A DNA stretch of 23,878 nt. Origin: an uncultured archaeon (lineage in GTDB: Archaea; Asgardarchaeota; Thorarchaeia; Thorarchaeales; Thorarchaeaceae). The DNA lies in contig CAZPWM010000043.1 in the NCBI GenBank assembly GCA_964590575.1, positions 1 to 23,878 on the forward strand, read 5' to 3'. This document shows positions 741 to 23,878 of the stretch, piece after piece (the stretch's first letter is position 1; every line of letters begins with the position of its first letter). Made by a program: the position numbers and the translations under genes. The notes beneath the pieces are model-generated. The model saw only the letters and a list, made by a program, of their open reading frames with translations, had not been told where the DNA came from and did not search any database.

Positions 741-1226
741 TTACTCCTGAAGAGAGGATAGAATCTGGGTCATATCTGGACATTTTTGAACGTTCTCGGA
801 TAGAACGTCGATATACCGAATAATTCCTTTCTTATCAATGACAAAGAGTCCACGTTTGCCATAACCCTCCTTCGGTGTAAAACAATCATACTTTAGTGTA
901 ACATCTCCAAGTGGTTCACGGTCAGACAATATCGGAAATCCGAGACCATGAAGATTCTTCGACCATGCATTATTTTTCCTGATTGAATCCATATTTACTC
1001 CTAAGACCTTCGTATCAAACTCACTGTACTTGGTGAGGTTGTCCTTGTAGAGTAGAAGATAATTCTTACACGAATCGCTGAGGTTTCCCGGATTCAATGC
1101 TAGAAGAACATTGCATTTTCCTCTATAGTCTGAGAGTCTTATCCTATTTCCGTCTTGATCAGGCAGCTCGAAATCAGGAGCTTCTTCTCCAACGTTAAGA
1201 CATACGTTTTTTTCACGTAATAGCAT
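741..1226 (-). CDS. Peroxiredoxin family protein (AhpC/TSA, AhpE/BCP-like)
   Basis: VGEEAPDFELPDQDG..RLSDYRGK; PxxxSxxC active-site motif (PGNLSDSC); FPILSD; catalytic Arg in KRGLFVIDKKGIIRY. ATG at 1226 preferred because GGTGA precedes it (ORF track start is 1238). Confidence 0.88.
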   Translation of the reverse strand: MLLREKNVCLNVGEEAPDFELPDQDGNRIRLSDYRGKCNVLLALNPGNLSDSCKNYLLLYKDNLTKYSEFDTKVLGVNMDSIRKNNAWSKNLHGLGFPILSDREPLGDVTLKYDCFTPKEGYGKRGLFVIDKKGIIRYIDVLSENVQKCPDMTQILSSLQE

Positions 1227-1247
1227 GGCAATCACCAATTTATCATA

Positions 1248-1332
1248 TTAACTATAGTTAAATATCTTTTGTAATAGGTTCTATTCCACTTTATAAGTAA
1301 CCATAATACTTAAATATTGTAATAGTATTACA
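1248..1332. promoter_or_regulatory. AT-rich divergent promoter region with two palindromes (candidate operators)
   Basis: Perfect palindrome TTAACTATAGTTAA at 1248-1261; inverted repeat TGTAATA-G-TATTACA at 1318-1332 with an extra half-site TGTAATAG at 1270-1277; TATA-like TTTATAAG (1290-1297) and CTTAAATA (1309-1316). Confidence 0.5.
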
Positions 1333-1342
1333 CAATACATAA

Positions 1343-1378
1343 CAACTGTAAGAGACTGCGTGGGTCTGACGACAGTTG
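1343..1378 (+). other. Predicted 5'-UTR stem-loop of the peptide transcript
   Basis: CAACTGT (1343-1349) pairs with ACAGTTG (1372-1378); inner stem AGACT/GGTCT. The 3' arm abuts GGAGGAG at 1378-1384. Confidence 0.5.
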
Positions 1379-1395
1379 GAGGAGCTGCAGGAAAA

Positions 1396-1503
1396 ATGGC
1401 TGATGAAGAAACGAGTAACAAAACCTTCGCAAAGCGAGGGACTGGAAATCCGGGACTCAGAACGCTTGATTCCCTGTACTACGACTATGCTCGCATTAAG
1501 TGA
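1396..1503 (+). CDS. Small peptide P1, 35 aa: MADEETSNKTFAKRGTGNPGLRTLDSLYYDYARIK
   Basis: ATG at 1396 to TGA at 1503, preceded by GGAGGAG. Too short for the ORF track. Confidence 0.6.
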   Translation: MADEETSNKTFAKRGTGNPGLRTLDSLYYDYARIK

Positions 1504-1524
1504 GTCTAAATGGAGGTGAAGTGT

Positions 1525-1620
1525 ATGGCACTTGCGAAAACCGATAAGAGGAAGCTGAATCACGGGAAGAAGATTCAGACCACAGAAGCTTTGGCTTATG
1601 CTTATCTCTACAGAAGGTAG
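1525..1620 (+). CDS. Small peptide P2, 31 aa: MALAKTDKRKLNHGKKIQTTEALAYAYLYRR
   Basis: ATG at 1525 to TAG at 1620, preceded by a near-perfect archaeal SD, GGAGGTGA (1512-1519), with 5-nt spacing. Confidence 0.7.
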   Translation: MALAKTDKRKLNHGKKIQTTEALAYAYLYRR

Positions 1621-1654
1621 GGGTCGTAGCATCAGCCATGCGGATTAATCTAAC

Positions 1655-1700
1655 ATGAGATCGTGCTCGGGTCTTACTCGGGCACACTCATTCTCATTTT
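1655..1700 (+). terminator. 3' stem-loop followed by a pyrimidine/T-rich tract, closing the peptide unit
   Basis: GTGCTCGGGT-CTT-ACTCGGGCAC (1663-1685; 10 bp with two G.U pairs), extendable by ATGAG/CTCAT, followed by TCTCATTTTC. Confidence 0.5.
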
Positions 1701-1754
1701 CTACATACTCGCTTTTCTCGGTGGTTTTATACTCCCGATGGTGTACTAAAGCTC

Positions 1755-2087
1755 ATGGGGGCTCAAGTCAACACACAGCTTTCGAATTACATGGTCTATG
1801 ATATTCGAGGTTTCACTGAAATAGATGCAGTCTATGAATTAGCTATCAAGATTACTGATGAGGTAATGGAGGGAATTGCTAGGCTTGCCTATAGGAACAC
1901 CATCGAAACTGCAACTCTCTTTATCACAGAATCTGGTGCTCAACTCATCATTCTTGCACATTCATTCGATGAAGAACTCATTGCTCCAGCTTTCCGAAGC
2001 ACGCTCAAGAGTGTTTCATATGATTCAGAAACAGGATACATCCAACGTTATGTCATTCCAATCCTAGATGTTGAATCTCCGACTTAA
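1755..2087 (+). CDS. Hypothetical protein (110 aa)
   Basis: Globular-looking composition. TTTTATA box at ~1725-1731 suggests a leaderless start. No family recognised. Confidence 0.65.
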   Translation: MGAQVNTQLSNYMVYDIRGFTEIDAVYELAIKITDEVMEGIARLAYRNTIETATLFITESGAQLIILAHSFDEELIAPAFRSTLKSVSYDSETGYIQRYVIPILDVESPT

Positions 2088-4206: not shown

Positions 4207-7020
4207 CTACTCTACGTTTCTGAAGTCATCGGCTAAGTTGCTACTTAGACCTTTCTTGGTAGCAAAGTACGTTGTGACGAAGGCCGACATAAAGCTAAGC
4301 AAGATGATACCTGTGAGCAGGGGCATAGGAAAGACAAGGAATGTAGGGAGTCGAGACCAGACGATCTCAGTGGTAACGCCGAGAAATGCGAGTGGTAGCT
4401 GAAGCATGAGTAGTGACAAGAACAAGCCCACGATGGATCCTATGAATATCCCTAGGAGCATACTCACTCCCACATCAACTAGGACCGATTGCATGATTGA
4501 TGAGTTGGGTGTGCCCATTGCCCTCAGGATAGAGAACTGCTTCTGGAAACGTCGTGTCTTTACCACTGAGATGATCATCAGTCCAGCTGTAAGATAAATC
4601 AGGGAGAACAACAGGTTAAGAGTATAAACACCGTAGATAGATTGCCCAGTTCGTGAGTCTAACACCTCGTCAATGTTCGCCTGTGACGAGATTATCTCCT
4701 CAGTCGTGATATTGGTCCTGCTTGTGATATCCTCTATCACTTTGGTGTAATTCGCATCATCTGCAAGATCTACATAGATCTTGTTTACAGATGATGTGTT
4801 GAGTGTGTTCTGGATGTAGCTAATGTTCATTATGAGGAAATCACGAACTCCCGGTTCGCCAGGGAAGTAGCTTATTGTTCTAGCAGTATAGTCTGAAGAC
4901 ATGACATCCACGATAGAACAATCAAGAGTGTAATTTAGAGTGGAATTCATCTGAATGGTCACAAGCACAGAATCATGGTAGACTGGTTGCCCTAAGGAAT
5001 AATATTGCACAGGCATAAATGAGCTGATGATGTTTGTTTTATTCTCAGCGAGAAGTGGGATTGTTTTGTATGGATTCTCACTCATTGTAAAATAGGGGAG
5101 CAGAAACGCAGTCTGAACCCAGCTTATCGGATCGATTGCGAAGATAGTGAGTGATGTGTTCACACGAACTAGCTCCTGTTGTTTGGTTGCATGTAGGTAC
5201 ATTACACGAGCATAGGTTTTCAACAGAGCACTGGCATTGTTCACACCTTCAATATCTCTGATTACCCCGACGATGTCATTGGATACATTTCTCAAATCTT
5301 CATCCACATTGATGACAATATCCGCCCCCACATCAAAATTGAACAACTCCTCCATGTGCGTTGAGCCTGTGGTAGATGACACGGTTGAGAAAAAGCTTGC
5401 AGTGAAGACTAGTCCTATGAACATCACACCCAATGCTTCACTCCTCTTTGCCAAGATAGCATTCCTGGATACCATTAAGGCTCCTACAGTTCGCGATGCA
5501 CTTCGGAACAGGTTGAGCAATCTAGACTTAACAAAAGCGGTCGGTATTGAGAGTATTCTCGATACCGATAGGATGAACACGCCAAACATGGTTATGACCA
5601 AGACTGCAAAGAGAACCAATCCAGTGGGAGAAACTGCTCCAGAACTGAGTATTGATAATAGCGGTGTTAAGAGAAGACCGGATACTATAACCGCTAATAC
5701 ATCCGCTACAGGAGTGCTAATCATTTCCTTTCCTGCAAGGGATTGTCTCTCAACAACTGAGTGCGCCTCATCAGGTGTCATGAGGAGTGCATTGACTGCT
5801 GATGGTAGTGATATGGCAAAACCCACAATAAATGAAAACACGAATATAATTGCGATTGATGTCGGCTCTAGAAGTAGATTGAAGGTGGATAATTCCTCTT
5901 CACTAAAGACTAGGAGTTGTCTGACTCCTCCAGAGAGAATCGCTGCGAGTGCTCCAGTTAGAACCGCTCCTAAGCTTCCTATTGTTCCGGTCACAAGAGC
6001 GCTAGATATGACCCAGTTGAATGACTGCCATCCTGAGGCCCCTCTTGTGATTAAAGTTCCTACATCTTGTCTACGTTGGTCCTCCATCAGTTTCGAGTTA
6101 TAGGCTAGTAGCATCACACCCATCACAATGCTGGGGATTGAGAATGCCAGAGAAATTATGGTCATTGTTGAAGCCCAGGTGTTGTATCCATAGACAATTC
6201 CAAGGATTTCGAATTCAGTCACTCTTGCGTACGGGAGAGTACGCTGTTCTATTCTCTTCTTCACATCATAAAGCGATGATTCAACAAGACTCGGACTACC
6301 ATGAATGATGAAACTAGAATCAAACACTGTCCAGATACTATAAGCTGCTTCATGTACTGATTGCAGTCCCACATTTCCTAATTCTGATACAAGACTATTG
6401 CGAGTGGTAATCATCCGAAGTGAAGTGATTGGGTTTCCATCGGCATCTCGACTACTGCTGAATATGTTGCTTGCAAAAATCCCTCCTACAGTGTAACTTG
6501 CGTTGTATTTCTGGTCGTTGTTATTTGTGTTTGTGGCCAGTATCTCTGCAACGTAGGTGTTGCCAATCTTGAATCCCAAATATTCCGCCCAATCGCGTTC
6601 CAAGTAACACATGGTATCATTCAAGTCGAGCGACCCTGTCTGAACTTGAATAGCATCTGGGAACGTCTGAAAGAATGAACTATCTACACCAAGGTAGGTG
6701 TACTTTTTGAATCTGTTCTCTGGAAATTCACTGTCAAATCCATTAATGAAGGCAACTACCTCTGTATTCACAACCAGATCTTGTTCCTCTACAATCACTG
6801 CGATGTTCTCGATAGTTGTTGCATTTGTATCATAGAATTCAGATGTACACTGAACCTCCATATCGACAAGGATGTCTTGAGTCATTTCTTCAAGCACATT
6901 CGCACTTGTACTGTCCATGTAGAACAATACTCCACCCAAAACTCCTGCAGATAATGAAAACATGAGCAGAGTCGCTAGGACTTGAGGACTCCGTGACACA
7001 AGTCTCGAAAGTAGAAACAT
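4207..7020 (-). CDS. ABC transporter permease, FtsX/MacB-like (duplicated architecture)
   Basis: 937 aa with two extracytoplasmic domains and TM bundles; motifs RRQDVGTLITRGAS, VGADI and KQFSILRAMG. Confidence 0.88.
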   Translation of the reverse strand: MFLLSRLVSRSPQVLATLLMFSLSAGVLGGVLFYMDSTSANVLEEMTQDILVDMEVQCTSEFYDTNATTIENIAVIVEEQDLVVNTEVVAFINGFDSEFPENRFKKYTYLGVDSSFFQTFPDAIQVQTGSLDLNDTMCYLERDWAEYLGFKIGNTYVAEILATNTNNNDQKYNASYTVGGIFASNIFSSSRDADGNPITSLRMITTRNSLVSELGNVGLQSVHEAAYSIWTVFDSSFIIHGSPSLVESSLYDVKKRIEQRTLPYARVTEFEILGIVYGYNTWASTMTIISLAFSIPSIVMGVMLLAYNSKLMEDQRRQDVGTLITRGASGWQSFNWVISSALVTGTIGSLGAVLTGALAAILSGGVRQLLVFSEEELSTFNLLLEPTSIAIIFVFSFIVGFAISLPSAVNALLMTPDEAHSVVERQSLAGKEMISTPVADVLAVIVSGLLLTPLLSILSSGAVSPTGLVLFAVLVITMFGVFILSVSRILSIPTAFVKSRLLNLFRSASRTVGALMVSRNAILAKRSEALGVMFIGLVFTASFFSTVSSTTGSTHMEELFNFDVGADIVINVDEDLRNVSNDIVGVIRDIEGVNNASALLKTYARVMYLHATKQQELVRVNTSLTIFAIDPISWVQTAFLLPYFTMSENPYKTIPLLAENKTNIISSFMPVQYYSLGQPVYHDSVLVTIQMNSTLNYTLDCSIVDVMSSDYTARTISYFPGEPGVRDFLIMNISYIQNTLNTSSVNKIYVDLADDANYTKVIEDITSRTNITTEEIISSQANIDEVLDSRTGQSIYGVYTLNLLFSLIYLTAGLMIISVVKTRRFQKQFSILRAMGTPNSSIMQSVLVDVGVSMLLGIFIGSIVGLFLSLLMLQLPLAFLGVTTEIVWSRLPTFLVFPMPLLTGIILLSFMSAFVTTYFATKKGLSSNLADDFRNVE

Positions 7021-9791
7021 TATGCCCCCTCCATATATGGCCTTGCTTCAGTCCATGTGCTGTTTAATGAATCAATCAGGTTAACCCGTGAGCTCAATGC
7101 TGCAATCACACCAATGAAAATTACAACACAGAATATGAAGAAAGAGAGAATTATTGCCATTAAGGACCATGGGGCGAGAATGGTTACCGATGATGGATAG
7201 ATGTAGATTACCCCTCCGTAATTCCGAACTGCAGCGAGGAGTGAATTCACTGTTAAGAAAGGTGTGAATAAACCAAGTAGAATGACACTAATCAGAAGAA
7301 GTACTAGCATCTCTGAGGCTTCAGTCTTTATTACAAGATTTCTCTCTGCTCCAAAAGACCTGAGAAGCGCAATCTCTCTTTTTCTTGACTTGACACCTTC
7401 TATCGCGTAGACCGTGAAGGCTCCAAAGATTGTACCAACACTAAGAATTGTCAGTAGAGTGTCAGTAGAACGGTCTAGGCCATAGATTTCCTGTGATGTG
7501 TAGATCTCAACTTCACGGAAGGCAGATGCCCATTCATCCTCTTCCAGAACCTCAGTCCATCCATTATTAAGATGTTTTTCCGCTATGAGAGTCGCGTTGG
7601 ACTGGTCATCTACTCTCATACAAAACACGTTCTTGACGTCTGACACTCTTGATAAGATGTTCTCCACATCCTCCCTGTTCACCCATATTTTTTCTGCACC
7701 TACAGCATATGTCCACTCAAATCCAGGATATGGATTGTATCCACTACTGAAAGTCAATAAATCTGGAAGTGCCCCAACAACTCCGATGATGCTGAACTCC
7801 AGAGTTTCGAGCTCTGTTTCGTTCCTCCAGAAAGCCCTCAATAGACCACCGGTTGACAAGCCATACTGTTCTGCGATGTCCTGTGTTATGATAGCTCCTG
7901 AATCGGTTAATGCCAGCTGCTCTATCAATGTTCCAAGACTTGACTCATTTAGTCGATTGCCCACAGAATCGTATCCTACTTGTAAGTATTCAGTCGGTTC
8001 TAACGCGACAAACTCGTATGATCCTTCTGCGCCTGTAGACAAGGAGAGTGATAACATACTGAGGAGACTCCCAGTTGAGGATGGAATATTTTCAGAGAGA
8101 TTACCAATGAACGAATCCCACAGAACTGATTCGTCCGAATCGAGATGGAATGCCAAATCTCCACCAATAGCAAACCTCGTTTGATTCATTCTTGTATACG
8201 GCAATGTTGCATCGTTAATTGCATAGTTCCATCCCAGACTCATAGCCAGTACTAGAACCATGATAAGCGGTCCTGAAGAAACAGTTGCCTTGCTTATCCG
8301 TCGAATCCCAATAGCTGCAGGTATCTTCCCAACCACAGCACCGAACATTCTCGAGAATAAGTTGGAACCTCGCCTTAATCCCTTGAGTGCCAAACTTGTT
8401 AAACCAAAAAACAATGTGAAAGGCAAGAAACTTAGAATGTAGTAAAGAAGGGGGTTCCTTGTGACAACAGTACCTTCCAAATTGAGCGACACAAGTAACA
8501 CAACACTTAGTGCAAGGAGAACAGCATCACCTTTCATGAAACTCAGTGCTCTAGTTATTCTCGCGAGCCTTCCAGTCCTTTCTTTTGCAGTTATTCTAAA
8601 GACGCCTTTCATCTGATGTAAAGCTAATACGATGAGAGGCAGTGTCACTCCTGCAATTACAGAAAAAACCAGACCGCCAAATGAGATTAGAAGTGGTTCG
8701 GTGAACACCCTCTGGAAATTTATCATGAAGAAACCATTAGACGCGATAGCAAATCGACTTGCTACAACACCAACCACAAAGCCGGGTATAATCGAGAGGG
8801 CCGCCATGGTTATAATTTCAATATATACTGATAGACTAACTCGGGAACGTGAGGCTCCCCGGGCTATCAACATATTAATCTCGTAATCCCTTTCACTCCA
8901 AATATGATTGATAACCAGATATATGACAGCCAGCTCAAGAAGAATTGCTCCTCCACTTCGGAGAATCTGTGATATACGAAGGTCTGATAGATATTCCATA
9001 TAATCGTCAATTCCATCAGATAGGAAGTTGATGACATAATACTCTGATTCCCCTCCTCTCGCATAGAGGGGATCCAGTCTTATGATTTCATCATCTATTT
9101 CTTGAAGAAAGCCTAGGGATCCTGCTGGATCATAAGGGACAACTTTGCTTCTATCAACATCTGCATAGATGTAACTGAATGTCAAAAAGCGATTTAATGT
9201 CGAGTGAAAGATTACATGACCACAAGTGTAGAAGTATGGATTTGGATGGTCACTCTCCCCATGCTCAAAGATGCCGGTTACAGTTGTAGGCCGATATGAG
9301 GGATCATAGGGATCCAAAGGGGTAAAGGAGTAACTTACTTGGTCTCCTATTTCAACATCGAGAAGATCTGTGATAAGAGTGGAGATAGCTATTTCAGAAT
9401 TATTCACAGGAAAGCGTCCATCTATGATTGTGATTATGGTTGGGAATGCTTCAATGAACTCCTCATTATATCCCATACCGAATGTGTTTGCTTCCCGCCA
9501 ACTTCCAGATGTTGTTGATGCAAGATAGGTGAATGTTCCTCTGATTCCTGCAGCTCTCCTGATTCCCACAATCTCTCTAAAATCGTCTATTTCGGAATCT
9601 ATCCCACTTCCTGCAGCGACAAGTGACAATGGACCGATATCATTACTTGATGTCCATACTTCCATTGAATACGAGTCAACAAGGACCATTGTGCTAGCAA
9701 TTATGGCTGACGTGAGCATGAAACATAGAAGGGCTATTGACTTCCTCCTCTTGCCTTGAAATGCATCATAACCTACAGGAGTCACAACCAA
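7020..9791 (-). CDS. ABC transporter permease, FtsX/MacB-like (duplicated architecture)
   Basis: 923 aa; motifs IDGRFP..NSEIAI, ERDYEINMLIARGAS, IGGDL and RKREIALLRSFGA. Its stop overlaps the next ATG (TAATG at 7020). Confidence 0.88.
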   Translation of the reverse strand: MVVTPVGYDAFQGKRRKSIALLCFMLTSAIIASTMVLVDSYSMEVWTSSNDIGPLSLVAAGSGIDSEIDDFREIVGIRRAAGIRGTFTYLASTTSGSWREANTFGMGYNEEFIEAFPTIITIIDGRFPVNNSEIAISTLITDLLDVEIGDQVSYSFTPLDPYDPSYRPTTVTGIFEHGESDHPNPYFYTCGHVIFHSTLNRFLTFSYIYADVDRSKVVPYDPAGSLGFLQEIDDEIIRLDPLYARGGESEYYVINFLSDGIDDYMEYLSDLRISQILRSGGAILLELAVIYLVINHIWSERDYEINMLIARGASRSRVSLSVYIEIITMAALSIIPGFVVGVVASRFAIASNGFFMINFQRVFTEPLLISFGGLVFSVIAGVTLPLIVLALHQMKGVFRITAKERTGRLARITRALSFMKGDAVLLALSVVLLVSLNLEGTVVTRNPLLYYILSFLPFTLFFGLTSLALKGLRRGSNLFSRMFGAVVGKIPAAIGIRRISKATVSSGPLIMVLVLAMSLGWNYAINDATLPYTRMNQTRFAIGGDLAFHLDSDESVLWDSFIGNLSENIPSSTGSLLSMLSLSLSTGAEGSYEFVALEPTEYLQVGYDSVGNRLNESSLGTLIEQLALTDSGAIITQDIAEQYGLSTGGLLRAFWRNETELETLEFSIIGVVGALPDLLTFSSGYNPYPGFEWTYAVGAEKIWVNREDVENILSRVSDVKNVFCMRVDDQSNATLIAEKHLNNGWTEVLEEDEWASAFREVEIYTSQEIYGLDRSTDTLLTILSVGTIFGAFTVYAIEGVKSRKREIALLRSFGAERNLVIKTEASEMLVLLLISVILLGLFTPFLTVNSLLAAVRNYGGVIYIYPSSVTILAPWSLMAIILSFFIFCVVIFIGVIAALSSRVNLIDSLNSTWTEARPYMEGA

Positions 9792-14270: not shown

Positions 14271-15128
14271 TTACCATCCAAGGTCTAAATCACTTGAATC
14301 GAATAGTTCGTCGTGGCTTTTCTCCTCTCCTGAGAGCCGCAATGGGAACTCTACAAACGGATCAAGTGCCAGACCAACCTCCATCACTACCTTAAGAACG
14401 GGTGAGATTTTGATGAGTTTGCCTTTGAAAGGGTTCAATGAACTCCAGTTAAGAAGAATCGTTTCTTCTATCCATTTATCAAAATCGTTGAAAGTTATCG
14501 GTATATGTTTCTCACTAATCACTATTTTAGAGTCCAGCTTACTTCCTTTGCAAACTATATCTTCTCTTCTAAGAATGTCAATCCGGACGCCTTTAATTCT
14601 GGGCCGTTCTTTCACAAGAAATCTTACTTGAAGCCCCTTGTTTGGTCTAAGAATATCTGTTGGAATTTCGACTTGTAAGTGCTCTACTTGCTTTCCTATC
14701 GGTTCTGATTCAGATATCGGCTCAGGAATATACGGTGGTGGTCTCGATTTTATGGCAAGCTCAATCTTTGATTTTGGATCCAATGCTCGGTCAATCTCCA
14801 CTACTGCCTCAATACTGTAATCAATCGCACCATGGAATCCTACGTGGACTGGAGGGATTTCCGTCGGTAGTGTGAATTCAAACTCAAAAGGAGTGTTCCC
14901 TGAGTAAACGTCCCCTCCCTCGCAGATTATAATGTCTTCATGTAGGAGTTCGTGAGTATCACTCACATGGACCTTTCCTGCTTGGTAGTGGGTATATTCT
15001 TTTCCTCTTATCTTCATCATGATTCTGTTGCATGTGAAATTGCTGTCCGTACTAACCAATACATGTCCCCTGACCTCATCACCAGGTTCGAATGTATCCT
15101 TCTCAGTTTGAATCGTGATCTCTCGCAT
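14271..15128 (-). CDS. Arrestin-fold protein (Arrestin_N/SpoOM-like plus second beta-sandwich domain), paralog B
   Basis: FEPGDEVRGHVLV, IRGKEYT, GNTPFEFEFTLPTEIPP, GAIDYSIEAVVE. ATG 15128 gives 285 aa, colinear with paralog A (track start is TTG 15173). Confidence 0.82.
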   Translation of the reverse strand: MREITIQTEKDTFEPGDEVRGHVLVSTDSNFTCNRIMMKIRGKEYTHYQAGKVHVSDTHELLHEDIIICEGGDVYSGNTPFEFEFTLPTEIPPVHVGFHGAIDYSIEAVVEIDRALDPKSKIELAIKSRPPPYIPEPISESEPIGKQVEHLQVEIPTDILRPNKGLQVRFLVKERPRIKGVRIDILRREDIVCKGSKLDSKIVISEKHIPITFNDFDKWIEETILLNWSSLNPFKGKLIKISPVLKVVMEVGLALDPFVEFPLRLSGEEKSHDELFDSSDLDLGW

Positions 15129-15193
15129 ACTACATTCAACCAACTGCTTACATCTTAGTTTGGATGAAAGCAAATAGGGTTTTCTTCAACTGT

Positions 15194-16054
15194 CTAATTG
15201 AACCCAAAATCAAATGCTATAGAGTCAAGAATGTTCTCGGTCTCTTCCTCTATCTTCTCGCCAGACACTTTGATTCGATAGGTCACATCTGGATCAAAAT
15301 CCCATTTCATTTCAAGGACAACTCTAAGGAAAAATGATGTTCTTAGAAGCTTCGATTGAATTGGCACGCGCTTCCATCCCTCGCCAATAACCTCCTCCCG
15401 CCAACGATGAAATTCTCCTGCCATAAACGAGATGATTTTTCTTAAAATTGTGACATCATGTGTGCCTTTGCTCCCTCTGCATTTCGCGTATTCCCTTCTT
15501 CTAATCTCTAGACGTACAGCACTTGCGCGAGAATGTTCCTCTACCATGAATCGAACAGGAATCCCTTTCTTAATCCTGAGAATGTCACTCTGAATTTCGG
15601 TGTGGAGAATACCAGTGTCCTTGTTCACCGGATTATATCCATCAGGTTCAGATAGGTAGATGGGCTGAATAGGTAGGACTCTGAACCGACGAGTAATCTT
15701 TGGATCTATAGCCCAATCCATCTCAACGACCGTTTCTACGCTATATTCGATGAAGCCGTTATACCCTGAATATGTTGGTGGCAGTCCTTCATTCAGTTTG
15801 AACTCGAATGGAAATTCATTCCTCCCAGCAGGAATCTCAGTTATGTCACAGAGTTCGAATTCTCTATTAAGAAGAATGTGCTCATCGGTTATCCTAGTAT
15901 CCCCAGACCCCATCTCAGTCCTCTCTTTTCCCTTGACCCTAAGGATGACCCTGTTGCAATCAAAGGACTTGTCAGTATCCACGATGACAATACCACTAAT
16001 GCTACCGCCTGGTTTGGCGCTCCGCTGTGAGAACTTGATGTCCACAACCCGCAT
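15194..16054 (-). CDS. Arrestin-fold protein (Arrestin_N/SpoOM-like plus second beta-sandwich domain), paralog A
   Basis: KPGGSISGIVIV, VKGKERT, AGRNEFPFEFKLNEGLPPTYSGYNGFIEYSVETVVE; 286 aa. Confidence 0.82.
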   Translation of the reverse strand: MRVVDIKFSQRSAKPGGSISGIVIVDTDKSFDCNRVILRVKGKERTEMGSGDTRITDEHILLNREFELCDITEIPAGRNEFPFEFKLNEGLPPTYSGYNGFIEYSVETVVEMDWAIDPKITRRFRVLPIQPIYLSEPDGYNPVNKDTGILHTEIQSDILRIKKGIPVRFMVEEHSRASAVRLEIRRREYAKCRGSKGTHDVTILRKIISFMAGEFHRWREEVIGEGWKRVPIQSKLLRTSFFLRVVLEMKWDFDPDVTYRIKVSGEKIEEETENILDSIAFDFGFN

Positions 16055-17628: not shown

Positions 17629-19611
17629 ATGAGTGAGTTCAAACTAGAAGCCCCATTCAAACCCACTGGTGATCAACCACAGGCTATTGAGAAGTTAGTG
17701 GAGGGTCTCGAGAGTGGACTTCAGAATCAGACTCTACTGGGTGTCACAGGCTCTGGCAAAACATTCAGCATAGCTAACGTCATCGAGGCATACAACAAAC
17801 CGACCCTTGTTATCTCTCATAACAAGACGCTGGCTGCTCAACTGGCCTCTGAGTACAAACAGTTCTTTCCTGAAGCGGGAGTGGAGTACTTCGTCAGCTA
17901 CTATGATTACTATCAACCTGAAGCCTATGTTCCCAGTAAAGACATGTACATCGAGAAAGAGGCTGACATCAATAGAGAGATTGAACGACTTCGCCACTCG
18001 GCAACCCATTCTCTGAGGTCTCGAAACGATGTTGTCGTTGTGGCATCCGTGTCCTGTATATATGGCGTTGGAAACCCGAGTGAGTACGACTACTTCAGGA
18101 TGTATATTGAACGAGGGAACCAAATTGACCGCCGCGATATTCTCGAACGACTTGTAGCAATGCAGTATGAAAGAAACGACATGGACATCAAGCCTGGAGT
18201 ATTCAGGGTTCGGGGTGATGTGATCGATGTGTATCCTGCCGCCTCTGAGAATAGTTATCGAATCGAATTAGATGGTAACAAGGTGTCACGACTTACTATG
18301 CTTGAAGGTCTTACAGCACGGAAGATGTATGAACCAGACTGGATTGAGCTGTATCCAGCTAAACATCACGTTGCTCGCCATGAGACAATTCTCGAGGCAC
18401 TAGAACCTATTGAACAAGAGATGCATGAACGTGTGGAGTGGTTCAAAAAACAGGGAAAGCTCGTAGAAGCTGATAGGCTCAGGAGACGTACATTGTACGA
18501 CATCGAGATGTTGAGAGAAGTCGGTATGTGTGGGGGGATTGAGAATTACTCTCGATTCATCGATGGACGTGAAAAAGGGCAAAAACCGTACACATTGCTA
18601 GACTACTTCCCAGATGATTTTCTTATGATAATTGATGAGAGCCACATGACCATCCCTCAGATAGGTGGAATGTACAATGGGGATTTAGCACGAAAGAATA
18701 ACCTGGTTGACTTCGGTTTCAGACTGCCATCCGCTATCGACAACAGACCTCTCAAGTTTGCTGAGTTCGAGAAGTACATGAAACACGTAATCTACACAAG
18801 TGCCACACCTGGACCCTTCGAGAAGAAAGTAAGTCAGCAGGTAGTAGAGCAGCTATTGAGACCCACAGGTCTCTTGGACCCCGCTATCACAGTCAAGCCA
18901 GTTATTGGACAGGTTGACCACCTATTAGGAGAGATACAGACAACAGTTGAGAGGGGTGATAGGATCCTTGTCACGACACTCACAAAAAAGACCTCTGAGA
19001 TGCTCAGTGAATACTTGGTCGAAGCAGGGATTAAGGCACGATATCTCCACTCTGACATCGGGACTGTGGAGCGGATTGAGATTATCCGTCAGCTTCGTCT
19101 TGGCAAGTTCGACGTGCTTGTTGGCATCAATCTTCTGAGAGAAGGTTTGGATCTACCTGAGGTGGGACTTGTAGCCATCCTAGATGCTGATAAGGAAGGA
19201 TTCCTACGTACAGACTGGGCACTTATACAGACAATGGGTCGCGCAGCGCGGAATGTCAATGGACAGGTCATCCTTTATGGGGACCACACATCAAAGGCAA
19301 TGCAAACTGCTATCGATGAAACAAACCGTAGACGAGCATACCAGCTCAAGTATAACGAGGAGCATGGTATTCAACCAATATCAATCACGAAGTCAATTCA
19401 AGACATTGCACAGGGAATCAAGACATTTGAGAAGACCAGTCAAACGAAACTCGAGGACTTCGACCCGTTTGAAGTTGACGAGCTGACTGATTATATAATT
19501 GACCTCGAGGAGCAGATGAAAGAAGCTGCTAGAAAACTCGAGTTCGAGAAGGCTGCACGACTCCGGGACCAGATCACAGCACTTCGGAAAAGGATAGAGG
19601 GAATACAATAG
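17629..19611 (+). CDS. uvrB: Excinuclease ABC subunit B
   Basis: PTGDQPQAI, Walker A GVTGSGKT, beta-hairpin SYYDYYQPEAY, DESH, GINLLREGLDLPEV, QTMGRAAR and C-terminal UVR domain (LEFEKAARLRD). ATG 17629 preferred (track start is GTG 17602). Confidence 0.98.
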   Translation: MSEFKLEAPFKPTGDQPQAIEKLVEGLESGLQNQTLLGVTGSGKTFSIANVIEAYNKPTLVISHNKTLAAQLASEYKQFFPEAGVEYFVSYYDYYQPEAYVPSKDMYIEKEADINREIERLRHSATHSLRSRNDVVVVASVSCIYGVGNPSEYDYFRMYIERGNQIDRRDILERLVAMQYERNDMDIKPGVFRVRGDVIDVYPAASENSYRIELDGNKVSRLTMLEGLTARKMYEPDWIELYPAKHHVARHETILEALEPIEQEMHERVEWFKKQGKLVEADRLRRRTLYDIEMLREVGMCGGIENYSRFIDGREKGQKPYTLLDYFPDDFLMIIDESHMTIPQIGGMYNGDLARKNNLVDFGFRLPSAIDNRPLKFAEFEKYMKHVIYTSATPGPFEKKVSQQVVEQLLRPTGLLDPAITVKPVIGQVDHLLGEIQTTVERGDRILVTTLTKKTSEMLSEYLVEAGIKARYLHSDIGTVERIEIIRQLRLGKFDVLVGINLLREGLDLPEVGLVAILDADKEGFLRTDWALIQTMGRAARNVNGQVILYGDHTSKAMQTAIDETNRRRAYQLKYNEEHGIQPISITKSIQDIAQGIKTFEKTSQTKLEDFDPFEVDELTDYIIDLEEQMKEAARKLEFEKAARLRDQITALRKRIEGIQ

Positions 19612-22514
19612 TGAAGAGTGCCACCAACGATAGAGGCAAAGGCGCACCAGAAGTGCCTTTAGATGGCCCTCAGTCCATAGTAGTCGTTGGAGCAGCTGAA
19701 CACAATCTTCGCCACATCAACTGTGAGATTCCAAAGAACAGTTTCACAGTGGTCACCGGTGTCAGCGGATCTGGGAAGAGTTCGCTGGTCTTCGACACGA
19801 TTTTTGCGGAGGGGCAGAGACGGTTCATAGAGTCCCTCTCAGCCTATGCACGACAGTTTCTGGGGATGTTGGAGAAACCAAAGGTCGACTTCATGTCAGG
19901 ATTGTCCCCATCTATCTCCATCGATCAGAAAAGCGTTAGCAGAAACCCGAGAAGCACAGTTGGGACTATCACTGAGATTTACGATTATCTACGACTGCTC
20001 TATGCAAGAGTAGGAGTTCCTCATTGTCCACAGTGTGGGAAGATGATTGAACCACAGACGTCTCAACAGATGGTTGACCGTGTCCTTCAGATAAAAGAGG
20101 GCACGCAAATCATGATTCTTGCTCCCATTGTAAGGGGGCGAAAAGGTGAATATCGGAGAGAGTTCCGAGACCTCATCAAGAAAGGCTTCATTCGAGCTCG
20201 TGTAGATGGTGAATTGATAGAGATTGAAGAAGGGATGTCCCTCGACCGCTATTTCAAGCACACAATCGAAGTGGTCGTTGATAGACTGCGGGTGAAGGAC
20301 TCAGAACGTAGTCGTGTCTCTGAAGCCATAGAAACCGCTCTCAACATGGCAGAGGGTGTCGTCACCATCGAGAAGACTGGTGGCCCACTCACACTCTCTG
20401 AGCAGTTCGCATGTGTAGACTGTGGCATCAGTCTTCCAGAGATGGAACCGAGAATCTTCTCCTGGAACACACCACAGGGCGCGTGCACAAACTGCACTGG
20501 TCTTGGTGTCGTTCGCGAGTTTGATACTGACTTGTTCATCAAAGATCCCAATCTGTCACTAAACGAAGGTGCGATGATTCCTGATAACTGGGTGCTTCGA
20601 AGAGACCTCTTCAAGAAGGTGGCTGAGAAGTATGGCTTTACACTTGACATGCCTTGGAAGGATTTCACTGAGAAACAGAAGCAGATAATCTTCTATGGCA
20701 CCAAAGAAAAGTATGATGTGACATGGGAAGGCGAGAACGAAGAAAATGAAGTGAAGTATTCCGGTCATTACAAGAGAAGTTTTGAAGGATTCATACCCCG
20801 TGCACAGAGGACCTACAAGAGGACTAAGTCTGATTGGAGGCGGAGGGAGATTGAGCGTCTCATGTCTGCTCAACCGTGCCCGGTGTGCAATGGTAATCGT
20901 CTTCGACCTGAGTCTCAAGCCATCACGTTTGGAGACCGCTCCATCTCAAGCTTAGGGAGCATGTCCATCAAGGACCTTCAAGAGTTCATTGAAGGAACTA
21001 AAGTAAAGAAGCAGCTCCGCCCTGTTTCTGATCCAATAATCAAAGAGATACTCGGAAGGATAGGTTTCCTGCAGGATGTGGGATTGGAGTATCTTACGCT
21101 GGAACGACCTGCTCCGTCACTTGCAGGTGGTGAAAGCCAGCGAATTCGACTAGCTAGCCAGATTGGTTCAAACCTTGTCGGCGTCACCTATGTATGTGAT
21201 GAGCCCAGTATAGGGCTTCATGCACGCGATAACCTGCGGCTGTTGAAGTCGTTGATGAATCTGAGAGACCTTGGAAACACAATCCTAGTTGTCGAGCATG
21301 ATGAGGAGACAATCAGGAATGCTGACTATGTGATAGACCTTGGTCCTGGTGCTGGAGCTGAGGGTGGCGAAGTGGTAGTTGCTGGTACACTTGATAAGAT
21401 TCTCAAGTCGAAAAAGTCACTCACAGCAAAGTTCCTTCGGGGAGAGGATGAAATTCCGGTCCCTACTGAACGAAGAAAATCCAATGGTCGATTCATAGAG
21501 GTCCGTGGATGTCGCCATAACAACTTGAAGAACCTGAACGTTCGCATCCCTCTTGGACTGTTCGTTGCAGTGACAGGAGTAAGTGGTTCTGGAAAGTCAT
21601 CTTTTGTCGTAGAGACCCTCCAGCGAGAACTAGCACGCAAGTTCCATCGTGCTGAGGCAAAGCCTGGAGACCACGACGAGATCATAGGCGTTGACCAGCT
21701 TGACAAGGTTATAGTCATTGACCAGAGTCCAATTGGGCGAACACCCCGTTCCAACCCTGCTACGTATGTCGGGCTATGGAGTCCCCTGAGAGACCTCTTT
21801 ACGAGCCTGCCAGAGTCGAAGATACGTGGATACAAACCTGGTAGATTCAGTTTCAATGTGAAAAGTGGTCGATGCGAGACCTGTAAGGGAGCAGGAGTAG
21901 AAGTCATTGAGATGCAGTTTCTTCCACCTGTCCAAGTCACATGCAGCGAGTGCAAGGGTCGACGTTACAACAGAGAGACCCTGCAAGTGCGATTCAAGGG
22001 AAAGAACATCGCTGATATTCTTGACATGAGGATAGATGAGGCACACGAGTTCTTTGAAGGAATACCGTCTATCCACCGAAAACTAGAAACTCTCTGTGCA
22101 GTGGGGATGGGTTACGTGAAACTTGGACAGCCAGCTACGACTCTTAGCGGTGGAGAAGGACAGAGGATCAAACTGAGTAAGTTCCTCTCACGACCTGCAA
22201 CTGGACAGACCCTGATTCTGCTGGATGAGCCCACAACGGGGCTTCATTTCGCTGACATCAAGAAGCTCCTTGAGGTCCTCCATCGATTGGTCGACCTCGG
22301 TAACAGTGTCTTAGTGATTGAACATCAACTGGATGTTGTCAAGACCGCAGATTATGTGATTGATCTAGGTCCCGAAGGTGGCGATGATGGAGGCTACATT
22401 GTTGCTGAAGGTACACCCGAAGATATCGTTGCATGCGAAATATCCTACACAGGTCAATATATGAAAGAACTACTAAAGCTGTCAAAAAGCGCATCTGGAG
22501 GGAAGAAGAAGTGA
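19611..22514 (+). CDS. uvrA: Excinuclease ABC subunit A
   Basis: Two ABC ATPase modules (GVSGSGKSS twice; LAGGE and LSGGE; DEP), zinc modules, UvrB-binding and insertion domains. Confidence 0.98.
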   Translation: MKSATNDRGKGAPEVPLDGPQSIVVVGAAEHNLRHINCEIPKNSFTVVTGVSGSGKSSLVFDTIFAEGQRRFIESLSAYARQFLGMLEKPKVDFMSGLSPSISIDQKSVSRNPRSTVGTITEIYDYLRLLYARVGVPHCPQCGKMIEPQTSQQMVDRVLQIKEGTQIMILAPIVRGRKGEYRREFRDLIKKGFIRARVDGELIEIEEGMSLDRYFKHTIEVVVDRLRVKDSERSRVSEAIETALNMAEGVVTIEKTGGPLTLSEQFACVDCGISLPEMEPRIFSWNTPQGACTNCTGLGVVREFDTDLFIKDPNLSLNEGAMIPDNWVLRRDLFKKVAEKYGFTLDMPWKDFTEKQKQIIFYGTKEKYDVTWEGENEENEVKYSGHYKRSFEGFIPRAQRTYKRTKSDWRRREIERLMSAQPCPVCNGNRLRPESQAITFGDRSISSLGSMSIKDLQEFIEGTKVKKQLRPVSDPIIKEILGRIGFLQDVGLEYLTLERPAPSLAGGESQRIRLASQIGSNLVGVTYVCDEPSIGLHARDNLRLLKSLMNLRDLGNTILVVEHDEETIRNADYVIDLGPGAGAEGGEVVVAGTLDKILKSKKSLTAKFLRGEDEIPVPTERRKSNGRFIEVRGCRHNNLKNLNVRIPLGLFVAVTGVSGSGKSSFVVETLQRELARKFHRAEAKPGDHDEIIGVDQLDKVIVIDQSPIGRTPRSNPATYVGLWSPLRDLFTSLPESKIRGYKPGRFSFNVKSGRCETCKGAGVEVIEMQFLPPVQVTCSECKGRRYNRETLQVRFKGKNIADILDMRIDEAHEFFEGIPSIHRKLETLCAVGMGYVKLGQPATTLSGGEGQRIKLSKFLSRPATGQTLILLDEPTTGLHFADIKKLLEVLHRLVDLGNSVLVIEHQLDVVKTADYVIDLGPEGGDDGGYIVAEGTPEDIVACEISYTGQYMKELLKLSKSASGGKKK

Positions 22515-23878
22515 CAGGTTTCATTCAGGTGCGAAAAGCTGAGGAACACAACCTCAAGAAGATTGATGTCGACATTCCCCGAGACCGTCTAGTTGTTGTG
22601 ACAGGACCCAGTGGATCAGGGAAAAGTACACTTGTGTTTGACACGATCTTCGCTGAAGGTCAGCGTCGATATGTCGAGTCCCTGTCATCCTACGCTCGAA
22701 GGTTCCTTGGACGGCTTGATAAGCCAAAGGTGGATAAAATCACAGGTTTACCTCCTGCGATATCTATTGAACAGAGAGGACGGACTAAGAACCCTAGAAG
22801 TACTGTAGGAACGAGCACTGAAATTCATGACTACCTTAGACTACTCTATGCGAACATCGGTGTCCCACACTGTGGTGAATGCAACCAACCGATGGAACAG
22901 CTAACCGCAGAATCTGCAGCGCGTCTGCTGCTTGATGAGAACGGAGGTCAGCGTATTCACATTCTTGCCCCTGTTGTGAGAGGTGAGATCGGTAATCATC
23001 AAGAGGAACTGGATAGTCTCTTCAAGAATGGTTTTGCTCGTGTTCGAGCCGATGGGGAGATCCATGAAATCGAGGATGTCGAGCTAGATGCACGCAAGAA
23101 GCACGACATTGAAGTTGTCGTCGATAGGCTTGAGTTGAGTCAGAAACATCGGGAGCGATTGATTGGTTCCCTTGAGACTGCTCTTGAGACTGGTGAGGGA
23201 GCAGCTATTGTTGCTCGAGAAGGACAAGCGGACCTTGTATTTGCTGAACAGCTCATGTGTCCCAAGTGTGGAATTCAGTATGACAAATTAGGTCCGAAAG
23301 CATTTTCATATAACAGACCTGACGGTGCCTGTCCAACTTGCAATGGTCTTGGTGTCACAATGTCGATTGACCCCGACCTCATTGTAAATGATAAGAACAT
23401 GACTGTGCGAGATATAAGTCGCAGGATAAATGGCAAGGAACGTCCGTGGTTCGTAAAACGAGTTCAGACTCTTGGAGAAGAGAAGGGCTTCACACTCGAA
23501 ACTCAGTACAAGAACTTCACAAAAGCTCAGGTTGACGTCTTCATGTGGGGGAAGCCGAATGTCATGCTTTCCTATGTGATGGAGGGTCAGGAGTCATACT
23601 GGGAAGTTGAACGGAAGTGGATTGGTCTTGTTCCTTGGCTTGAACGACTCTTTGAGAACAGCAAGAGTAGCGATAAAAGTTGGTATCAATGGTGGGCTCG
23701 TAGGATTGCAAACGAATTCTCTCGAAAAACACCCTGTGAGTCCTGTGGTGGAAGAAAACTGAAACCCGAGAGCCTCGCAGTGACAGTTAGTGACAAGCCC
23801 ATCGATGAGTTGACAGCGATGACCATCGAGGAAGCAGTACAGTTTTTCGAGAATATTGCGTTGACAGAACGCGAGCAG
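22511..23878 (+). CDS. uvrA: Second excinuclease ABC subunit A paralog, 3'-truncated by the window
   Basis: Not in the ORF track because it has no stop. GTG at 22511 overlaps the uvrA stop (GTGA); open for 456 codons: MTGFIQVRKAEEHNLKKIDVDIPRDRLVVVTGPSGSGKSTLVFDTIFAEGQRRYVESLSSYAR...NPRSTVGT...CGEC...CPKC...CPTCNGLG...CESCGG. Confidence 0.95.
   Translation, partial: MTGFIQVRKAEEHNLKKIDVDIPRDRLVVVTGPSGSGKSTLVFDTIFAEGQRRYVESLSSYARRFLGRLDKPKVDKITGLPPAISIEQRGRTKNPRSTVGTSTEIHDYLRLLYANIGVPHCGECNQPMEQLTAESAARLLLDENGGQRIHILAPVVRGEIGNHQEELDSLFKNGFARVRADGEIHEIEDVELDARKKHDIEVVVDRLELSQKHRERLIGSLETALETGEGAAIVAREGQADLVFAEQLMCPKCGIQYDKLGPKAFSYNRPDGACPTCNGLGVTMSIDPDLIVNDKNMTVRDISRRINGKERPWFVKRVQTLGEEKGFTLETQYKNFTKAQVDVFMWGKPNVMLSYVMEGQESYWEVERKWIGLVPWLERLFENSKSSDKSWYQWWARRIANEFSRKTPCESCGGRKLKPESLAVTVSDKPIDELTAMTIEEAVQFFENIALTEREQ

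Follow-up and report, generated by a model that had tools for sequence, protein, structure and literature searches.

The gap at positions 1239-1754 (516 bp) in a 23,878-nucleotide stretch from an uncultured archaeon of the family Thorarchaeaceae (GenBank assembly GCA_964590575.1, contig CAZPWM010000043.1, positions 1 to 23,878 of the forward strand; this whole stretch is hereafter the window) appears to be an autonomous bicistronic operon for two microproteins, p1 and p2, encoded by the open reading frames (ORFs) ORF1 and ORF2. We read p2 as freely translated and p1 as masked by a long-range RNA duplex, here called the clamp, until this duplex opens, and place the probability of this reading at roughly 55%. 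A preliminary description of the same DNA had proposed a self-contained two-peptide unit comprising a TATA-like box, an inverted repeat, a 5' stem-loop, two frames led by Shine-Dalgarno (SD) sites, a 3' hairpin, and a T-rich tract. All of these elements lie where it had placed them and most are conserved in relatives, and the conservation of the promoter block, leader hairpin, both SD sites, and 3' hairpin in orthologs bears out the unit as such. Two features go beyond that description: p2 belongs to a large multi-copy peptide family, and the 3' region pairs with the start of ORF1. The elements on which the reading turns are the following.

1378-1384, forward strand: SD-like sequence GGAGGAG of ORF1, with a long spacer of 11-13 nt; GAGGAG is conserved in the alignment
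1385-1405, forward strand: 5' arm of the clamp, paired at 1385-1389 and 1397-1405, with the ORF1 start codon covered and 1390-1396 bulged
1396-1503, forward strand: ORF1, encoding p1 (35 aa, MADEETSNKTFAKRGTGNPGLRTLDSLYYDYARIK); open in 17 of 19 orthologous loci
1512-1519, forward strand: full-length SD sequence GGAGGTGA of ORF2, with a 5-nt spacer; GGAGG is invariant in the 19 loci
1525-1620, forward strand: ORF2, encoding p2 (31 aa, MALAKTDKRKLNHGKKIQTTEALAYAYLYRR), a member of the A/B peptide family described below; open in all 19 loci
1630-1643, forward strand: 3' arm of the clamp, a 14-nt box CATCAGCCATGCGG that begins 10 nt downstream of the stop of p2; it matches the p1 start region in reverse complement

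Protein-level selection acts on both frames. The comparison rests on an aligned set of 19 orthologous loci, 17 of which underlie many of the RNA counts given below; the gap DNA was matched in 17 of the 24 same-genus genomes drawn (69-83% identity) and had no convincing match at the DNA level outside the genus. The preliminary description had suggested looking for conserved starts and stops and for a ratio of nonsynonymous to synonymous change below one, and in the alignment the frames stay open in most or all loci, and pairwise pN/pS is 0.41 for p2 and 0.66 for p1, vs. 0.95-1.03 and 0.85-1.34 in the two shifted frames. ORF1 is deleted in locus L017 and interrupted by a stop in L019. Every indel within a frame has a length divisible by three (9 nt and 3 nt for p1, two of 3 nt for p2), and those in the flanks are of any length. 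Nucleotide diversity in p2 is 0.44 at third positions vs. 0.25 at the other codon positions, and Leu24 of p1 is invariant yet encoded by four different codons. When neutral evolution was simulated on the inferred trees, assuming equal rates at all sites, all frames remained open in 0 of 1000 runs for p2 and in 3 of 1000 for p1 (17 frames, with L017 and L019 and their broken ORF1 excluded beforehand).

The expectation that size-filtered gene callers would miss the unit holds in part. The exact p1 sequence is missing from a collection of 15 billion proteins, both for the window (35-aa and 47-aa starts) and for seven of the eight p1 orthologs looked up; p2, on the other hand, is present there, though unnamed.

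The clamp emerged from unguided prediction, as RNAalifold places a 10-bp long-range helix between the box and the p1 start. Across 17 sequences, 98.2% of the cells are paired, and three pairs of the 10-bp core are doubly changed (G-C replaced by A-U in three sequences at one pair and in a single sequence at another, and U-A by A-U in two). The second codon in genome G012 is GTT instead of GCT, and the box there carries the matching G-to-A change. The fold of 1340-1705 reaches -118.4 kcal/mol (z -4.26) and contains the clamp in both its minimum free energy (MFE) and its centroid structure; none of 500 shuffles attains the values observed for the complete structure of four helices. Folding of the single sequence adds a 5-bp extension, 1385-1389 with 1639-1643, across the 7-nt bulge. 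This extension is rewritten by lineage with its pairing kept: it reads UGCA/UGCG in most sequences, GACCA/UGGUC in L013 and L014, and GAGCA/UGCUC in L018, and L015 and L016 have an unbroken helix of 12-13 bp with ACACA/UGUGU. For the start region paired with the initial 42 nt of the 3' untranslated region (UTR), duplex energies lie between -15.9 and -30.7 kcal/mol in all 17 orthologs (z from -2.2 to -6.0), with a mean of -22.1 kcal/mol for matched arms vs. -18.2 for arms taken from different species, and 16 of the 17 orthologs have the first pair of the duplex 6-13 nt past the stop. At 36 sister loci of the peptide family, the corresponding energies average -8.8 kcal/mol without any z < -2, and no such duplex is present, so the clamp is not a family-wide trait and is specific to the p1/p2 locus type. 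A 6-codon frame that starts inside the 3' box was also considered and is not conserved in the alignment.

These observations can be arranged into a model of translational control. The second frame would be translated constitutively from its perfect GGAGGUGA site at 5-nt spacing, and p1, with a weakly spaced SD site and a masked AUG, would be translated only on opening of the clamp. As opener we favour the ribosome terminating on p2, whose front edge may reach the duplex 6-13 nt downstream; alternatively, the 3' box may be lost by processing or 3' trimming. With either route, p1 would be made only with or after p2.

The flanking signals that would delimit this unit, and the start of the next one, are listed below.

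1290-1297, forward strand: TATA-like box TTTATAAG, recognised from its sequence
1297-1317, forward strand: putative core promoter block (resembling a transcription factor B recognition element (BRE) and TATA box, ending TTAAATAT), the most conserved upstream non-coding block in the 19 orthologous loci
1318-1332, no strand assigned: perfect 15-bp palindrome TGTAATAGTATTACA between the TATA box and the putative transcript start
1343-1378, forward strand: 5' leader hairpin with an outer stem (1343-1349 with 1372-1378) and an inner stem (1353-1356 with 1364-1367)
1656-1690, forward strand: 3' hairpin, GTGCTCGGG (1663-1671) with CTCGGGCAC (1677-1685), extended by TGAG (1656-1659) with CTCA (1687-1690)
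1691-1702, forward strand: T-rich tract TTCTCATTTTCT after the 3' hairpin; most orthologs have a T-rich stretch here
1716-1732, forward strand: promoter-like block TTTCTCGGTGGTTTTATAC of the following 110-aa gene, including TTTTATAC at 1725-1732; conserved in most orthologs

The TATA-like box proposed earlier is indeed present at 1290-1297, but the conserved block actually spans 1297-1317. Together with this block, the best-kept non-coding segments of the 19 loci are the first half of the palindrome, both SD sites, the box after the p2 stop, and the second promoter-like block at 1725-1732. The distance from TATA box to transcription start is roughly fixed in archaea, which would put the start of the transcript at ~1338-1342. 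The intervening palindrome is exact in 11 orthologs, has one mismatch in three, is represented by a direct repeat of the half-site in L013-L016, and is degenerate in L019, so that only its first half-site is invariant; nine distinct sites with at most two mismatches occur in the genome. It may be an operator or a promoter-proximal element, and an operator role is uncertain because direct repeat and degenerate forms replace the inverted repeat in some orthologs. Another palindrome, the perfect 14-bp TTAACTATAGTTAA at 1248-1261, lies in the promoter region of the divergent peroxiredoxin gene and has nine sites in the genome with at most one mismatch, several of them in AT-rich intergenic stretches.

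The 5' hairpin (-15.1 kcal/mol, z -3.2) is part of both the MFE and the centroid fold of 1340-1705, and a hairpin with z < -1.5 is found in 14 of 17 orthologs; its stem covaries, with one pair being C-G in nine sequences and U-A in six. For the 3' hairpin (-19.1 kcal/mol, z -4.0) the corresponding count is 16 of 17, and five of its nine pairs carry two-sided changes. It is likely to form the transcript end or to act as a stabiliser, and the T-rich tract behind it is a candidate archaeal termination signal. We rejected a selenocysteine insertion sequence (SECIS) or kink-turn reading of the 3' hairpin, as the preceding AUGAG pairs with CUCAU and covaries as a plain helix, and there is no Rfam match. 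For the region 1150-1850, Rfam yielded nothing at the gathering score and only chance-level rows (E 4.9-8.5) at E up to 10, and a tRNA scan found 0 genes. The 3' hairpin and the next promoter are overlapped by a 28-codon GTG frame (1663-1749, forward strand) for a very hydrophobic peptide; this frame is probably non-coding because the orthologous region has indels of many lengths. Two minus-strand ORFs (113 aa, 1291-1632; 63 aa, 1496-1687) are not conserved, having differing lengths and early stops in orthologs.

The gap is bounded by an AhpC/TSA peroxiredoxin gene (741-1238, reverse strand) and by a gene for a 110-aa protein (1755-2087, forward strand), with a class I/II aminotransferase gene next in line. 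An orphan confined to Thorarchaeota, the 110-aa gene has 74 relatives and no Pfam family, and nearly always adjoins the p1/p2 unit. Its product is confidently predicted to adopt an alpha/beta fold (predicted local distance difference test (pLDDT) 80.7), for which structural matches were unconvincing (best Foldseek E 0.012; best VIA-align Z 5.7, under the noise level stated for that tool). The p1/p2 unit lies upstream of this gene in 17 of 19 loci. Its autonomy is indicated by three observations: the 110-aa gene has a promoter-like block of its own, the unit stands downstream of the 110-aa gene in G012, and the 110-aa gene is absent in two loci. The TATA centre of this block is ~27 nt before the ATG at 1755, a geometry from which a leaderless transcript would be expected for the 110-aa gene, and the block would thus mark the 3' limit of the two-peptide unit.

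Elsewhere in the window, a Pfam search of 22 ORFs identified DUF6935, TPR, Rad51-like, and histidine phosphatase proteins, two giant FtsX-type permeases, two arrestin-like proteins, UvrB, and two UvrA. Several of these form adjacent pairs: the two proteins of >900 aa with FtsX-type permease domains (4207-9791, reverse strand), the two arrestin-N-like proteins (14274-16054, reverse strand), and the two consecutive UvrA after UvrB (19611-23878, forward strand).

The second peptide is one of many. A profile of p2 orthologs, searched in six frames against 400 Asgard genomes, matched 71 genomes, almost all of one taxonomic family and with several matches each. A 55-sequence profile extended this to 78 genomes and 524 matches (1-13 per genome); these are the genome of the window and 77 of the 85 others of its family, covering all 16 genera, compared to 0 of 314 genomes outside it. 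p2 is the top match of this profile (61 bits, E 8.9e-16), but is itself among the sequences from which the profile was built. Family members have ~29-36 aa and consist of a MAL... start, a basic middle, and a tail of the form [ST]-x-A-[ILV]-x-[YH]-[AS]-[YF]-x-[YF]-R-R, all of which p2 fits. By contrast with this multi-copy family, p1 is single-copy: of the 28 genomes of the genus, a profile search located it in 20, with no match elsewhere at E <= 0.01. The p1 tail can be aligned with the motif of the p2 family, but not significantly (hhalign E 0.24), and p1 is not a significant member.

The usual arrangement of the family is a tandem micro-operon, A-B or A-B-C, in which A and B share the tail motif. 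Frame A (33-36 codons, beginning MALTTNN... or similar) lacks an SD site and has a very short leader. Frame B (27-30 codons, beginning MALAKT...) has an SD site formed by the final Arg-Arg-stop codons of A, and in tandem A-B-(C) loci each SD site is embedded in this way in the Arg-Arg-stop codons of the preceding gene. The often present frame C is acidic, with 34-40 codons, a variable beginning, and the invariant end (E/D)-V-L-x-[WLM]-E-A-T. The genome of the window contains three more family loci (contigs C29:5640-5964, reverse strand; C1:87872-88330, forward strand; C73:43-373, forward strand), and A-B-(C) loci were also found at L042-L050 and L069-L096.

Among 1.84 billion representative proteins, 59 clusters match the family, 58 of which are family peptides and one a spurious repeat protein; those of the 59 that were looked up are unnamed or "hypothetical". 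For p1 and p2, no families were found in Pfam (E up to 0.01) or NCBIfam (E up to 1), and for the A, B, and C peptides nothing meaningful was recovered from Pfam, NCBIfam, PADLOC, PDB sequences, or the ESM Atlas. Specifically, neither profile matched a PDB sequence at E up to 10, and nothing usable came from the ESM Atlas for p2 or a 70-aa read-through form. The PHROGs search yielded just two rows, both weak and at chance level (E 0.025 and 0.19), and these concern paralogous peptides from locus L083. A search of the literature on small proteins and microproteins of Thorarchaeota and Asgard archaea, supplementary tables not covered, found nothing on this family.

The locus types of the family each have their own stable synteny (for example, a convergent UbiE-like methyltransferase at 15 loci of one type, hemerythrin and eEF1A at another, and EamA and HAD at a third), and therefore the cassettes are old chromosomal residents and not mobile elements. 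The methyltransferase, a UbiE/COQ5-like S-adenosylmethionine-dependent enzyme, lies convergently within ~100 nt of the end of one type of A-B-C operon in at least two genera (L046, L048-L050, L072, L075, L083, L085, L087, L089, L095, L096, L112, L113, L115). Either synteny alone or a functional link could underlie this adjacency.

At 19 of 24 loci and at six of seven Joint Genome Institute (JGI) metagenome loci (L110-L118), C continues in the reading frame of B after a single TAG; A and B share a frame in 10 of 25. The shared B/C frame may stem from an SD spacing constraint or from programmed read-through. Read-through with pyrrolysine was rejected, as the genome lacks PylS (22 bits vs. a cut-off of 178). 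Several predicted proteins, all from short contigs, fuse B with C with Gln at the TAG or p1 with p2 with Trp at the TGA (P0008, P0026, P0032, P0055, P0058, P0059, and P0139/P0140). We discarded the B-C fusions as "Rosetta stone" evidence: all six carry Gln exactly at the TAG, one passes a second TAG, and six of the seven JGI loci have a TAG there. The B-C fusions most likely originate from gene callers that applied a TAG=Gln code to short contigs, and alternative genetic codes in gene calling are probably the cause of the fused proteins in general, although the p1-p2 form may represent a true fused lineage. In L010 (G002:C27), CTG takes the place of ATG as the start of the p2 ortholog, which shares the frame of p1 across a single TGA.

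Both p1 and p2 are polar and charged without a hydrophobic stretch. AlphaFold2 predicts helices at residues 3-17 and 20-28 of p2, with a mean pLDDT of ~89 for residues 21-30 and less certainty for the helix in the basic part. The two variable positions of the p2 tail would lie one helical turn apart, which fits a helix buried on most sides and thus a docking element. A predicted complex of p1 and p2 scored 0.03, and the tool returned no verdict. Our guess is that each peptide uses its conserved C-terminal helix to dock on a partner, either the other peptide or a shared cellular or RNA target, and that the basic, variable N-terminal part serves as a flexible arm. We would regard the pair, again as a guess, as a small regulatory binder and not as an enzyme substrate.

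Several points weigh against an autonomous two-peptide operon with a masked first frame. At the peptide level, the pN/pS of ORF1 is only moderately below 1 and the RNA helix places an additional constraint on its first codons, the neutral simulation is subject to the equal-rate assumption and the exclusions named above, and the homology of p1 to p2 is non-significant. Regarding the signals, the inverted repeat of the palindrome is not kept in five of 19 orthologs, and a scan for bacterial-type terminators returned 0 sites, leaving the 3' hairpin uncalled. The opener of the clamp is purely inferred; a ribosome that terminates on p2 would get no further than the first few pairs of the duplex, and the duplex could instead serve stability or processing, a purely stabilising role being possible. 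Finally, the RNA evidence lies outside the two-peptide unit: metatranscriptome run X1 (13% of sampled words) provided one 151-nt contig at 2155-2300, in the aminotransferase gene, and nothing on 1290-1700, and is uninformative on the expression of the unit.

The alternative that survives best, though we consider it unlikely, is a toxin-antitoxin-like or self-regulating module in which the folded mRNA is inert for p1, 3' processing releases p1, and p2 or the acidic third peptide neutralises it. A start region paired at long range with the 3' end region would suit such a module, as would the palindrome at the promoter, the acidic partner beside basic peptides in many loci, and the occurrence of the family as multi-copy autonomous cassettes without neighbours conserved across locus types. 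However, the peptides are hydrophilic, unlike known type I toxins, PADLOC has no match for them, and the locus types are stably syntenic across species instead of mobile. The clamp, moreover, is absent from all 36 sister loci, and neither an antisense RNA nor a conserved minus-strand feature was seen, an antisense promoter not having been specifically modelled.

Quite improbable in our view is a precursor of a ribosomally synthesised and post-translationally modified peptide (RiPP) or a cofactor-like precursor, with a Tyr-rich C-terminal core modified by an enzyme encoded elsewhere in the genome. The preliminary description had counted RiPP-like precursors among the candidate roles, and small size, tandem multi-copy organisation, and an invariant aromatic motif at the C-terminus, in which an acidic residue precedes a Tyr by four positions, would be in keeping with this. 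Precursors of the PqqA type have a core with a conserved acidic residue and a Tyr at a fixed distance, and precursor genes located away from their maturase occur in other systems. In p1 and p2, Glu or Asp precedes the conserved aromatic residue by four positions; across the family that aromatic position is Tyr, His, Phe, or Trp. Against a precursor role, the Tyr positions are freely replaced, and the pattern of conserved and variable positions fits a buried helix. The absence of radical SAM and YcaO genes from the window, already noted in the preliminary description, is confirmed by Pfam for its 22 ORFs, among which lanthionine, ATP-grasp, and P450 genes are also lacking. Nor is there a maturase within ~5 kb of the three sister loci of the genome (23 ORFs; a distant maturase was not searched for) or among 85 ORFs flanking other family loci, and no signal or export function is encoded nearby. 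The RiPP proposal thus has no support.

We give still less credence to a tyrosine-sensing leader, in which the slowing of ribosomes at the Tyr codons ending ORF1 and ORF2 would refold the RNA and control read-through into the 110-aa and aminotransferase genes. Tyr codons do cluster right before both stops (three in four codons in ORF1, three in five in ORF2), the box, hairpin, and T-rich tract come after ORF2, an aminotransferase is encoded two genes downstream, and the gene order is kept in 17 of 19 loci. A leader of this kind is nevertheless unlikely because the Tyr residues are exchangeable (half of the p2 orthologs have Trp instead, and a number of p1 and p2 sequences have His, Phe, or Leu), conservation is equal or higher at residues other than Tyr (Ser/Thr, Ala, Leu), and the p2 family occurs at many loci with unrelated, often convergent neighbours. 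Furthermore, the conserved promoter-like block of the 110-aa gene, the reversed order in G012, and the two loci without this gene speak against read-through control, and neither the RNAalifold nor the MFE folds contain a mutually exclusive terminator/antiterminator pairing.

That the gap encodes a structured non-coding RNA with two incidental open frames is scarcely credible: the region does fold better than shuffles, it has three conserved helices, and close species show fairly conserved synonymous sites in the tail of ORF1, but it belongs to no Rfam family at E up to 10, the frames remain open far beyond neutral expectation with in-frame indels and third positions most variable, the SD sites are correctly spaced, and hundreds of paralogous frames keep the peptide motif despite differing DNA.

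Compared to described systems, the operon we favour combines familiar parts in a different order. In hok mRNAs, a 5'-3' fold-back keeps the full-length mRNA translationally inert and 3' processing activates it; the type I toxin of hok/sok is a hydrophobic, membrane-active peptide of ~50 aa with a cis-encoded antisense RNA. The p1/p2 unit resembles hok in its small reading frames and in the long-range pairing between a start and the 3' region, with a block of translation inferred here. The hok fold-back element is mentioned in PMC3562002. Unlike hok, the p1/p2 unit is archaeal and has two frames, of which the first is masked by a box directly behind the stop of the second; its peptides are hydrophilic and not membrane toxins, and no antisense RNA was seen. 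In RNA phages of the MS2 type, the coat and replicase genes are coupled via long-distance RNA pairing. The putative coupling of p1 to p2 would likewise hide a start in a long-range duplex opened by ribosomes on another frame and yield products in a fixed order or ratio. It would, however, run backwards compared to the phages, the opener being the downstream and the hidden start the upstream frame. Among the leaderless multi-peptide bacteriocin operons of Firmicutes, the aureocin A70 and enterocin L50 types are similar in having tandem genes for cationic, leaderless peptides of ~30 residues, with several paralogues per operon. The archaeal peptides differ from these bacteriocins in being polar with only a short aromatic helix and in commonly having an acidic third peptide, and no transporter or immunity gene is consistently adjacent to the family loci.

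Closer to the organism, reporter studies in Haloferax volcanii and Halobacterium revealed that the 5' and 3' UTRs must act jointly for translational regulation (Brenneis and Soppa 2009, PMC2636863). In the portions of that report bearing on this point, the requirement is a functional one without a defined base-paired duplex, whereas the p1/p2 unit offers a covarying duplex derived from sequence alone. Surveys of archaeal small proteins include ribosome profiling of Methanosarcina mazei (PMC11456600), work on Haloferax volcanii (PMC10117724), and a global catalogue of small ORFs (PMC11364881). As in the accounts of small proteins given there, p1 and p2 are shorter than 70 aa and originate from previously unannotated frames, and such proteins mostly have no known function.

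A more far-reaching and tentative proposal is that Thorarchaeaceae possess a lineage-wide, undescribed system of several hundred micro-genes, in which basic A and B peptides with an aromatic helix and acidic C peptides would form small hetero-oligomers acting on a conserved cellular target. At the p1/p2 locus, the box would clamp the first start and termination on the second frame would license the first; this "backward" coupling would be the first archaeal 5'-3' mRNA switch resolved to the base pair. Irrespective of this proposal, the peptide family has >500 copies in one archaeal family, no relatives in the curated libraries searched, and is only partly gene-called, and we suggest that annotation should exempt Thorarchaeota frames of 30-35 codons with a strong SD site from size filtering. 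If the duplex controls translation, archaea would join bacteria and RNA phages in regulating gene order and stoichiometry through long-range mRNA folding, and the duplex would supply a mechanism for the cooperation of 5' and 3' UTRs in haloarchaea. Asgard archaea draw interest as the closest known relatives of eukaryotes, and small proteins and translational control are almost uncharted in them; the p1/p2 locus provides a concrete, conserved, and testable example of both.

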